Of a stretch of DNA of 30,915 bases, positions 2,674-29,312 are shown piece by piece. The DNA is from Escherichia coli (lineage in GTDB: Bacteria > Pseudomonadota > Gammaproteobacteria > Enterobacterales > Enterobacteriaceae). Below the pieces are notes generated by a model. The model saw nothing but the letters and a program-made list of their open reading frames with translations, was not told the origin of the DNA and made no database searches. The stretch's first letter is position 1; each line of letters starts with the position of its first letter. The translations under genes and the position numbers were made by a program. Location of the stretch: assembly GCF_003334335.1 (NCBI RefSeq), contig NZ_QOWQ01000048.1; one strand, written 5' to 3'.

Positions 2674-3012
2674 ATGGCTAAATCATCAGCAGAGCGCAAA
2701 GTCGATCAGAGAGCCAAGCAAGCATCATCCGGTATGCGTAAGCTGGAGCTTGTACTTGATGCTCAGGAAATTGAAATGCTGGATCGTAACTGAGCCACGC
2801 GCCGCTTCAGGCATGCGCCTTACGAGTTTGGTGAGTACATCGCGTTACTGAGCCGCCAGGATGATGCACGTGTGCGCTGGCGTATAAAATCGATCAGCAG
2901 AAAACGTTGCGGTAAGTGCGGCGAGAGAGTTCCTGTTAATTCATGCCCGTGTAATGGTGACTCACAATGCTGGGTGACCAAAGGCTGGCACGAAACAAAA
3001 TTAATGATATAA
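2674..3012 (+). pseudogene. Cys-rich small-protein ORF interrupted by a single in-frame TGA (2791..2793); possibly an ea8.5-type gene
   Basis: Frame 1 is open from 2644 to 3009 apart from the one TGA. The C-terminal half carries CGKC...CPC...C, a zinc-ribbon-like pattern. SD AGGAAA precedes the ATG at 2674. The ORF track shows no intact ORF of 60 aa or more on either strand here. Confidence 0.45.
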
Positions 3013-3040: not shown

Positions 3041-3469
3041 ATGAAATTAGACCAGCAATATCTAAAAGATCTACTTATCGCATTCGAAAAAACTCATGGC
3101 CCTGACACGATGCTTAGTGAACTAGAGGATAATGGCTTTAATAGATATGACCAAAATTTTATTTTCCATATGCGATTATTATGCGACTACGAATTAATAG
3201 TCAGGGTTGATGGAAAACCTGGGTTCGGTCATATAATGTCCAACGAGTTAGGGGAAGGTGTTGGATATAGTTGGATCGAAGTACCACTGAGGTTGACAGC
3301 AAGAGGGCATGATTTTATTGCTGACTTGCGTCAAAAGGAGGTCTGGCAAACTATAAAAACAAACTTTAAGGATGAGGGAATTAGTACACTAATAAGTGTT
3401 TCAAAATCACTAGCAAAAGGCTTTGCAAGGAAAAAGATAAAAGATATTACAGGAATAGATATTGAATAA
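3041..3469 (+). CDS. Hypothetical cytoplasmic protein, 142 aa, AT-rich accessory gene
   Basis: Strong SD GGAGG 5 nt upstream. No signal peptide or transmembrane segment. Followed by its own terminator. No catalytic motif that I recognise. Confidence 0.7.
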   Translation: MKLDQQYLKDLLIAFEKTHGPDTMLSELEDNGFNRYDQNFIFHMRLLCDYELIVRVDGKPGFGHIMSNELGEGVGYSWIEVPLRLTARGHDFIADLRQKEVWQTIKTNFKDEGISTLISVSKSLAKGFARKKIKDITGIDIE

Positions 3470-3513
3470 TTCTTAGCATCAGCAACTACTGCCTTTGGTG
3501 GAAATTATATCTG

Positions 3514-3540
3514 AACTCGCTACGGCGAGTTTTGTTTTAT
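3514..3540 (+). terminator. Intrinsic terminator downstream of the 142-aa gene
   Basis: AACTCGC-tacg-GCGAGTT followed by TTGTTTTAT. Confidence 0.6.
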
Positions 3541-3551
3541 GGAGATGATAA

Positions 3552-3719
3552 ATGCACTTCCGAGTCACAGGTGAATGGAATGGAGAACCATTCAACAGAG
3601 TTATCGAAGCAGAGAACATCAATGACTGCTATGACCACTGGATGATATGGGCGCAGATAGCACATGCAGACATAACCAATATTCGAATTGAAGAACTGAA
3701 AGAACACCAAGCCGCCTGA
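3552..3719 (+). CDS. Hypothetical 55-aa protein upstream of xis
   Basis: GGAG 8 nt upstream of the ATG; the ORF ends inside a hairpin plus T-run. Confidence 0.4.
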   Translation: MHFRVTGEWNGEPFNRVIEAENINDCYDHWMIWAQIAHADITNIRIEELKEHQAA

Positions 3720-3732
3720 TGGCGGTTTTTTC
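3709..3732 (+). terminator. Terminator-like hairpin just upstream of xis
   Basis: CCGCC-tgat-GGCGG followed by TTTTTTC. In lambda-type logic this would be read through by antiterminated pL transcripts. Confidence 0.45.
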
Positions 3733-3758
3733 TTGCGTGTAATTGCGGAGACTTTGCG

Positions 3759-3977
3759 ATGTACTTGACACTTCAGGAGTGGAACGCTCGCCAGCGACGC
3801 CCAAGAAGCCTTGAAACAGTTCGTCGATGGGTGCGCGAATGCAGGATATTCCCTCCTCCGGTTAAGGATGGAAGAGAATATCTGTTCCACGAATCAGCGG
3901 TAAAGGTTGACTTAAATCGACCAGTAACAGGTAGCCTTTTGAAGAGGATCAGAAATGGGAAGAAGGCGAAGTCATGA
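3759..3977 (+). CDS. xis: Excisionase
   Basis: The 72-aa product MYLTLQEWNARQRRPRSLETVRRWVRECRIF... matches lambda Xis as I recall it; it overlaps the int start by 23 nt, as in lambda. Confidence 0.95.
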   Translation: MYLTLQEWNARQRRPRSLETVRRWVRECRIFPPPVKDGREYLFHESAVKVDLNRPVTGSLLKRIRNGKKAKS

Positions 3978-5025
3978 GCGCCGGGATTTACCCCCTAACC
4001 TTTATATAAGAAACAATGGATATTACTGCTACAGGGACCCAAGGACGGGTAAAGAGTTTGGATTAGGCCGAGACAGGCGAATCGCAATCACTGAAGCTAT
4101 ACAGGCCAACATTGAGTTATTTTCAGGACACAAACACAAGCCTCTGACAGCGAGAATCAACAGTGATAATTCCGTTACGTTACATTCATGGCTTGATCGC
4201 TACGAAAAAATCCTGGCCAGCAGAGGAATCAAGCAGAAGACACTCATAAATTACATGAGCAAAATTAAAGCAATAAGGAGGGGTCTGCCTGATGCTCCAC
4301 TTGAAGACATCACCACAAAAGAAATTGCGGCAATGCTCAATGGATACATAGACGAGGGAAAGGCGGCATCAGCCAAGTTAATCAGATCAACACTGAGCGA
4401 TGCATTCCGAGAGGCTATGGCTGAAGGCCATATAACAACAAACCCGGTCGCAGCCACTCGCGCTGCAAAATCAGAGGTAAGGAGATCAAGACTTACGGCT
4501 GACGAATACCTGAAAATTTATCAAGCAGCAGAATCATCACCATGTTGGCTTAGACTTGCAATGGAACTGGCTGTTGTTACCGGGCAGCGAGTTGGTGATT
4601 TATGCGAAATGAAGTGGTCTGATATCGTAGATGGATATCTTTATGTCGAGCAAAGCAAAACAGGCGTAAAAATTGCCATCCCAACAACATTGCATGTTGA
4701 TGCTCTCGGGATATCAATGAAGGAAACACTTGATAAATGCAAAAAGATTCTTGGCGGAGAAACCATAATTGCATCTACTCGTCGTGAACCGCTTTCATCC
4801 GGCACAGTATCAAGGTATTTTATGCGCGCACGAAAAGCATCAGGTCTCTCCTTCGAAGGGGATCCGCCAACCTTTCACGAGTTGCGCAGTTTGTCTGCAA
4901 GACTCTATGAGAAGCAGATAAGCGATAAATTTGCTCAACATCTTCTCGGGCATAAGTCGGACACCATGGCATCACAGTATCGTGATGACAGAGGCAGGGA
5001 GTGGGACAAAATTGAAATCAAATAA
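3955..5025 (+). CDS. int: Tyrosine integrase, lambda Int type
   Basis: The 356-aa product MGRRRSHERRDLPPNLYIRNNGYYCYRDPRTGKEF... is essentially lambda Int by recollection; its 3' end faces the att site. Confidence 0.97.
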   Translation: MGRRRSHERRDLPPNLYIRNNGYYCYRDPRTGKEFGLGRDRRIAITEAIQANIELFSGHKHKPLTARINSDNSVTLHSWLDRYEKILASRGIKQKTLINYMSKIKAIRRGLPDAPLEDITTKEIAAMLNGYIDEGKAASAKLIRSTLSDAFREAMAEGHITTNPVAATRAAKSEVRRSRLTADEYLKIYQAAESSPCWLRLAMELAVVTGQRVGDLCEMKWSDIVDGYLYVEQSKTGVKIAIPTTLHVDALGISMKETLDKCKKILGGETIIASTRREPLSSGTVSRYFMRARKASGLSFEGDPPTFHELRSLSARLYEKQISDKFAQHLLGHKSDTMASQYRDDRGREWDKIEIK

Positions 5026-5113
5026 TGATTTTATTTTGACTGATAGTGACCTGTTCGTTGCAACAAATTGATAAGCAATGCTTTTTTATAATGCCAACTT
5101 AGTATAAAAAAGC
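5026..5113. other. attL (B-O-P') junction: P' arm with Int arm-type sites and the 15-bp common core
   Basis: The core TTAGTATAAAAAAGC at 5099..5113 is the reverse complement of the lambda att core GCTTTTTTATACTAA. Arm-type sites ATTTTGACTG and ATAGTGACCT lie at about 5034..5053. Host B-side sequence AGGCTTCA follows the core. Confidence 0.85.
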
Positions 5114-28559: not shown

Positions 28560-29275
28560 TGGGACAGCGCGCGTGAGCCTCTTTCACGTGCGCTGTTGAT
28601 CCACATCCGGCTGCCGTTGAGCGCAATAAAGGTCAGGATGATGTACTCCAGAGACATGGCGTAAACGCCCTGAAGTGCAAAAATAACGACGCTAATCACG
28701 TTAATAATCACCCACAACAGCCAGTTTTCCACATACTTACGCGTCATCAGAATCATTGCCACGATAGATAACACCATCATGCATGAATCCCAGAACGGGA
28801 AAGCGTCCGGTTGCAGTTCAGGCATCACAACCTGTAATCCTAATGCTTGCATGATCATGACTGCCACGCGGGTCAAAAATGCAAACACCGGATTGATAAA
28901 TACCGTCATCAGACCAATCGAAACAACGCAAACCGCCAACCAGCTGAGTGCCTTCGGCAATGGCAACCAGCGAATTTTCAACTCCGCCTCGTTCTGACTG
29001 GTTTGTCGCGACCACGCATACCAACCGTAAATATTCGCGGCAAAGAAAAACACCTGTAATAGCAGGCTGGCATACAGCTGAATCTGAAAGAAAATAATGC
29101 CAAACAAGGTGACGTTGATCAGGCCAAAGAAGTAGTTGCTGATCTTCTCCAGACTGGCAAGGCCAATACACAGCAACCCGGCGATCGTGCCTACCGCTTC
29201 GATCCATGAGAGATCATAACCGCCTGCCCCTATTGGTATATGTACCAGGATATTCTGCACACTAAAAAAATCCAT
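28556..29275 (-). CDS. pnuC: Nicotinamide riboside transporter
   Basis: A 239-aa membrane protein; its stop overlaps the zitB stop (shared TTAA). Confidence 0.95.
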
Positions 29276-29312
29276 CTTTCCCCCAAAGCGTAACGTTACG
29301 CCTTATTATTCG

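Follow-up and report, generated by a model that had tools for sequence, protein, structure and literature searches.

The DNA analysed here (the window, a stretch of 30,915 nucleotides from Escherichia coli) contains one end, the left, of a lambda-type prophage that has integrated at the attachment site used by lambda. The genes orf55, xis and int and the att core (GCTTTTTTATACTAA, 5099–5113) follow one another in this order, and the host genes ybhC and ybhJ come next; orf55 occupies the distal end of the exo-xis block, and pL and N lie outside the window. Many E. coli prophages share the order orf55-xis-int, as do lambda and the Klebsiella-type loci L084 and L087. The features discussed in the text are the following.

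3513–3540, plus strand: upstream terminator-like hairpin, GAACTCGC-TACG-GCGAGTTT followed by TTTTGTTTT, found by scan; left edge of the orf55 cassette.
3541–3544, plus strand: Shine-Dalgarno sequence GGAG of orf55, 7 nt 5' of the ATG, from reading of the sequence.
3552–3719, plus strand: orf55, ATG start, 55 aa, from the list of open reading frames.
3709–3731, plus strand: intrinsic terminator t'I, with stem 3709–3716 and 3721–3728, loop TGAT 3717–3720, and U-tract 3726–3731.
3733–3746, plus strand: cII-binding direct repeat TTGC-N6-TTGC, TTGCGTGTAATTGC, the −35 region of the cII-dependent integrase promoter pI, from a pattern scan and the annotation of OL657226.
3759–3977, plus strand: xis, excisionase of 72 aa, from the list of open reading frames; annotated as excisionase in lambda, 434, and ATCC 8739.
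3955–5025, plus strand: int, lambda-type tyrosine integrase of 356 aa overlapping the end of xis, from the list of open reading frames and annotations.

Homology to phage lambda starts at about 3504–3508, and from 3504 to 3760 the window is 96.9% identical to lambda over an interval that spans lambdap35 (NP_597778.1, lambda 29118–29285), the lambda counterpart of orf55, located between ea8.5 and xis. Comparison with the lambda interval, proposed as a check in the original prediction, shows that orf55 is 97% identical and that its hairpin is base for base that of lambda; the two proteins differ by a single amino acid, I41 here and V41 in lambda. The lambda gene has the same length, Shine-Dalgarno sequence, stop codon within the hairpin, and place between the ea genes and xis. 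The upstream neighbor differs, being a DUF2513 gene here (3041–3469) and ea8.5 in lambda, and a tL4-type hairpin ahead of the cassette, present in lambda, 434, and HK022, is absent from this prophage. The Orf55 protein matches phrog_676 (“unknown function”) with E = 1.7e-39, residues 1–55 aligning to profile positions 1–55 of 55. Homologues were found by homologue search in Enterobacteriaceae only. In published gene lists of the exo-xis region orf55 is included as the last ORF (PMC3824215, PMC8614690), and a passage in PMC9239242 cites earlier work in which orf73, ea22, ea8.5, and orf55 were implicated in a block of host replication initiation.

Variation in orf55 was assessed in 99 sequences, comprising the window and 98 fetched loci; the scan of viral_contigs yielded loci of 96–100% identity only, and divergent loci were fetched singly by protein. 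The reading frame is intact in 99/99 sequences, as expected if the ORF is conserved across related phages, and the 48 distinct nucleotide versions yield no more than 12 proteins, with 24, 15, and 48 variable sites at codon positions 1, 2, and 3, respectively. Against Klebsiella-type homologues (∼74% amino acid identity), which occupy another site in the chromosome and are likewise followed directly by an excisionase-integrase pair, dS is 1.5–3 and thus saturated and dN is ∼0.2, giving dN/dS of 0.06–0.17, or about 0.1. The length of 55 codons is constant across clades, and the Shine-Dalgarno sequence, labelled a ribosome binding site in the 434 record OL657226, is kept in nearly all loci compared. 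AlphaFold2 predicts a beta-beta-alpha-beta structure with pLDDT of 91.3, in which poor order is confined to the five C-terminal residues (pLDDT 57); these residues vary in sequence while the RNA arm that they encode is kept. That the ORF is no real gene and has merely arisen incidentally in a non-coding leader or terminator region might be argued from its very small size, the lack of a Pfam or NCBIfam family, the single note “Predicted by GeneMark” on lambdap35 in the lambda RefSeq record, its being among six genes left out of the genome-wide CRISPRi screen of lambda (PMC10695390), and the non-coding 3' remnants of orf55 in P22 and Sf6 described below. Nevertheless, the dominance of third-position changes, the small number of proteins encoded by the many DNA variants, the low dN/dS at saturated dS, the preserved length, the good Shine-Dalgarno sequence, and the confident structural model make this explanation hardly credible: orf55 is a genuine protein-coding gene under purifying selection.

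Searches for relatives of Orf55 outside its own family returned little. No match was obtained in Pfam even at E ≤ 10, nor in NCBIfam, and a search of Rfam at E ≤ 1 with window positions 3300–4000 gave none. A profile search of PDB sequences with Orf55 returned matches at chance level only (E about 1), T7 Gp2 not among them. One such match pairs Orf55 residues 2–10, HFRVTGEWN, with HFKVTGEWN near the C-terminus of copper nitrite reductases (E about 1 over 17 residues), and this likeness is most likely due to chance. A resemblance of the Orf55 fold to T7 Gp2, an inhibitor of E. coli RNA polymerase, has been proposed together with a speculative docking model of Orf55 bound to RNA polymerase (PMC8614690). 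In a Foldseek search of the PDB the top match is indeed T7 Gp2 (4lk0_M; E = 0.033, probability 0.99, TM 0.57–0.62, 21–23% identity), followed by the RNA polymerase epsilon subunit YkzG and phage p56, and no match attains E of 0.001. T7 Gp2 is a small beta-beta-alpha-beta protein, as Orf55 is predicted to be, but the two show no sequence-level relation in Pfam or in the profile search of PDB sequences. Because this sequence link is absent, the modeled resemblance to Gp2 would be weak evidence of relationship, the predicted fold being a common small beta-alpha-beta unit; the comparison suggests that a generic fold underlies the published likening of Orf55 to Gp2.

The hairpin at the end of the gene, AAGCCGCC-TGAT-GGCGGTTT at 3709–3728, has 8 pairs (5 of them G-C) and a 4-nt loop. 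The original prediction had described a 55-aa ORF ending in a hairpin just 5' of xis, with the stop codon inside the CCGCC/GGCGG hairpin and a T-run thereafter, and the coordinates bear out both statements: the ORF ends at 3719, its stop codon TGA (3717–3719) falls within the loop (3717–3720), six T follow at 3726–3731, the first three of them paired in the base of the stem, and xis begins at 3759, 39 nt past the stop. The terminal GCC GCC TGA of orf55 makes the 5' arm, corresponding to codons 53–55, and part of the loop, and t'I comprises the last three orf55 codons with the stop and the 12 nt beyond it. The features by which intrinsic terminators are recognized, namely a G+C-rich stem with a short loop and a U-tract directly 3' of the stem, are found together at 3709–3731. 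The folding energy of the 41-nt stretch containing the hairpin is −14.6 kcal/mol (z = −4.2), and none of 200 dinucleotide shuffles is as stable; the core alone has −13.0 kcal/mol. A bare terminator pattern is nevertheless not rare, with 6 sites in 2.9 kb vs 3.0 ± 1.7 in shuffles, so that it is conservation that argues against chance. Lambda has the identical hairpin, about 100 related loci keep it, and positions 3700–3760, with hairpin, T-run, cII box, and xis start, are identical to the lambda sequence (L003 1697–1757). A bidirectional terminator was considered and rejected, the minus strand having a weak T-rich tail and a poorer fold (z = −2.2).

The T-run ends at 3731 and the cII box begins at 3733, placing the terminator 2 nt ahead of the box. 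TTGC-N6-TTGC at 3733–3746 is the single match to this pattern in the 30.9-kb window, and the identical 14-nt sequence is annotated as cII binding site and pI −35 region in OL657226.

None of these elements is new, since the feature is already known and the gene, the terminator, and pI have been on the lambda map since the 1980s. A 1983 article in Virology by Benedik, Mascarenhas and Campbell reportedly dealt with the integrase promoter and the T'I terminator in bacteriophages lambda and 434. In the int-xis record of phage 434 (M60848) the hairpin directly 5' of pI and xis is labelled t'-I, and t-L4 is labelled upstream of ORF55; the same site is marked as a terminator in the 434 genome (OL657226, where PMID 6305007 is cited). 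The HK140 record places a “rho-independent terminator” on the hairpin described here, an annotation that overlaps the end of the lambdap35 homologue of that phage, and the P22 record (P22virB-3) labels the same hairpin a terminator. The hairpin was also predicted with ARNold as t5-lambda, with −11.2 kcal/mol (Bloch et al., 2014; PMC4195576, Table 4). These curated annotations support the reading of the hairpin as a terminator. In lambda, t'I does not differ from the element described here in hairpin, U-tract, or place 2 nt ahead of the cII box, whereas t'I of 434 has another stem (GCCGCA/TGCGGC) and is parted from orf55 by ORF114. Of 5426 complete E. coli genomes 2571, nearly half, contain the cassette, and the locus carries little weight as a discovery. 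The additions made here are modest: orf55 is shown to be under purifying selection, and the terminator is shown to travel with the orf55 3' end as a module boundary and to outlast loss of the gene.

In the fetched loci all lambda-type cII boxes (47/47) have a hairpin with a T-run 1–2 nt upstream. Thirty-three of these hairpins are of the orf55-end type and 14 of the 434 type (GCCGCA-TCAA-TGCGGC, −10.5 kcal/mol), these 14 lying in loci with an ORF114 insertion; in the latter type the loop-closing pair is A-T instead of C-G, both sides having changed. In phage 434 itself (L001 520–1000, M60848) the T-run that follows orf55 is the exact insertion point of the ORF114 cassette. The orf55-end hairpin of 434 carries a C-to-A change (GGAGG), and the second, different hairpin, which lies 59 nt past the ORF114 stop and contains no stop codon, restores a terminator before pI. 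Weakened hairpins comprise the GGAGG form (−7.3 kcal/mol), found in 434 and in two lambda-type loci, and a KNA C-terminal variant (−7.7 kcal/mol). The Klebsiella-type clade keeps GCCGCC...GGCGG and the T-run, with TGA in the loop, despite a loop of 6 instead of 4 nt and a shift of the Ala-Ala codons by one codon. A metagenomic orf55 homologue (L086 555–640) has two hairpins in tandem, GCCGCC-CACTGA-GGCGG with T6 and then GCCGC-CGATGT-GCGGC with T6. Of orf55, P22 and Sf6 retain as non-coding sequence no more than the final 45 nt, beginning at codon 41, in which the hairpin and T-run are intact and 97–98% identical. The P22 remnant (L101 900–975) lies between eaG and eaC, and that of Sf6 (L100 900–970) lies directly before a putative pI and the “bsq2” boundary sequence. 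Preservation of the hairpin in the Klebsiella-type clade despite saturated dS, and in the non-coding remnants of P22 and Sf6, suggests conservation beyond coding need.

The locus is very probably to be read as a cassette of Shine-Dalgarno sequence, orf55, and t'I placed before pI and xis-int, whose gene-end terminator is passed by N-modified polymerase and stops unmodified polymerase. RNA polymerase started at pL and modified by N would ignore the hairpin and U-tract and proceed into xis and int in induction or lytic growth. Polymerase without N modification, arising from upstream leak-through or from accessory genes expressed in the lysogen, would release its transcript at the U-tract, 2 nt ahead of the cII box, so that xis and int would stay silent and pI would be shielded from incoming transcription. 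We infer the termination efficiency of t'I, its read-through by N-modified polymerase, and its physiological role; read-through in particular is taken from established lambda biology, because xis and int are expressed from pL following induction. The original prediction had likewise placed the terminator where it would block non-antiterminated transcription from entering xis-int, which agrees with the position of the hairpin 2 nt before the cII box of pI and with the curated terminator annotations.

Several points count against this reading. The stem has just five G-C pairs, and the weakened variants (−7.3 and −7.7 kcal/mol) exist; a ribosome finishing orf55 could hinder formation of the hairpin, the stop codon being in the loop; and upstream pL terminators should, on established lambda biology, halt most unmodified transcription, leaving t'I largely redundant. 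In addition, the same hairpin is found where the next gene is not xis, for example before ORF114 and before P22 eaC, and is therefore a general gene-end or module-end element and no dedicated guard of xis.

In another explanation the chief role of the hairpin and T-run would be that of a module boundary, a short, conserved stretch where lambdoid phages exchange gene cassettes by recombination, or that of a stabilizer of the 3' end of processed pL mRNA, and control of xis-int would be incidental. Similarity among loci ends exactly at the T-run, beyond which at least six unrelated modules come next: pI-xis of lambda, a 66-aa gene of the Sf6/HK620 type, ORF114 of 434, an AlpA-type gene in HK140, another small ORF, and eaC of P22. 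The left edge of the cassette is also a hairpin with a T-run, and the genes 5' of this edge vary widely among loci; the Sf6 remnant abuts a sequence annotated “bsq2; boundary sequence”; and the joint GGTTTTTTATTGGAGAC is seen again at unrelated junctions. Reassortment of lambdoid genomes at module boundaries is already in the literature (PMC3029335), and the hairpin also serves as, or at least marks, such a boundary. The arrangement resembles lambdoid boundary sequences (“bsq”, Sf6 AF547987), in which a short sequence is common to unrelated neighbors at mosaic joints, with the differences that the shared piece here is a structured terminator and that “bsq2” of Sf6 starts just past the hairpin. 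All of this is, however, compatible with terminator function, since terminators mark gene ends, where viable recombinants join, and the 434-type hairpin, having the same structure with another sequence, points to selection on RNA structure and not on DNA homology. As a replacement for termination before pI and xis-int the module-boundary explanation is unlikely.

A different mechanism would be a translation-sensitive attenuator, in which a ribosome on the last orf55 codons occludes the 5' arm and translation of orf55 sets the leak into xis-int. The position of the stop codon in the loop and the identity of the 5' arm with codons 53–55 are as this mechanism would have them; the stop remains in the loop in the Klebsiella-type clade despite the enlarged loop and the one-codon shift of Ala-Ala; the last five residues of Orf55 are disordered and variable where the RNA arm is kept; and it is established that ribosomes near a terminator lower its efficiency. 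On the other hand, the pI-proximal terminator of 434 is 59 nt beyond the preceding stop, many bacterial genes end within terminators by compaction, and no observation demands the mechanism. P22 and Sf6 keep the hairpin without any ORF, and the coupling is therefore dispensable. An attenuator is thus quite improbable, and it is equally doubtful that the stop in the loop is functional in the sense that orf55 translation competes with the hairpin and thereby sets the unmodified leak into xis-int and spontaneous excision; were it so, the RNA stem, and no need of the protein, would determine the disordered Orf55 tail (...AA, ...AAH). The interlocking of small ORF and regulatory structure claimed in the original prediction is consequently real in lambda-type phages as an overlap, but does not hold as a required coupling, as 434, P22, and Sf6 have hairpins without it. 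With termination of unmodified polymerase at t'I retained as the preferred reading, the overlap of ORF and hairpin looks like compaction rather than required coupling, and the C-terminal Ala-Ala tail of Orf55 appears to have been shaped by the conserved RNA structure.

A joint of the form hairpin-TTTTTT-ATTGGAGAC-(5–7 nt)-ATG was observed at three unrelated junctions: orf55 to ORF114 (L001 535–567), the orf55 remnant to P22 eaC (L101 950–977), and an upstream gene to the Klebsiella-type orf55 (L087 about 1960–2000). This shared linker of terminator plus Shine-Dalgarno sequence could act as a recombination joint. In the downstream module of the Sf6/HK620 type a cII box is not claimed, the repeat there being TTGC-N5-TTGC and not N6, and Sf6 itself annotates only a “possible” pI.

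The hairpin at the left edge of the cassette (3513–3540) has a folding energy of −12.4 kcal/mol (z = −3.45) and is kept in about 90 loci. It lies 12 nt before the orf55 Shine-Dalgarno sequence, so that orf55 is bracketed by two elements of hairpin plus T-run, and a hairpin matching window positions 3513–3532 has been predicted as t4-lambda (PMC4195576, Table 4). A moron model, in which orf55 would have its own promoter, was rejected, as no sigma-70-like site is found within 3470–3552.

Other genes of the block were noted in passing. The gene at 3041–3469 encodes 142 aa with a DUF2513 match (Pfam E = 4e-10) and belongs to phrog_585, of unknown function. Short ORFs of 39 aa (phrog_34005/phrog_536, the N-terminus of a “transcriptional regulator”) and 46 aa lie within 2674–3012; their counterpart in the near-identical prophage of ATCC 8739 is a PGAP pseudogene with an internal stop, and the region looks like a decayed gene of the exo-xis block. 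Further upstream, the exo-xis block contains a 204-aa ORF (1766–2380) with an N-terminal signal-peptide-like segment, MKKSILILGLTLIVSSQIPSAMA, and a match to phrog_8310, of unknown function. The prophage could express this ORF as an accessory gene, and in the ATCC 8739 prophage an IS1 element is inserted just 5' of its counterpart.
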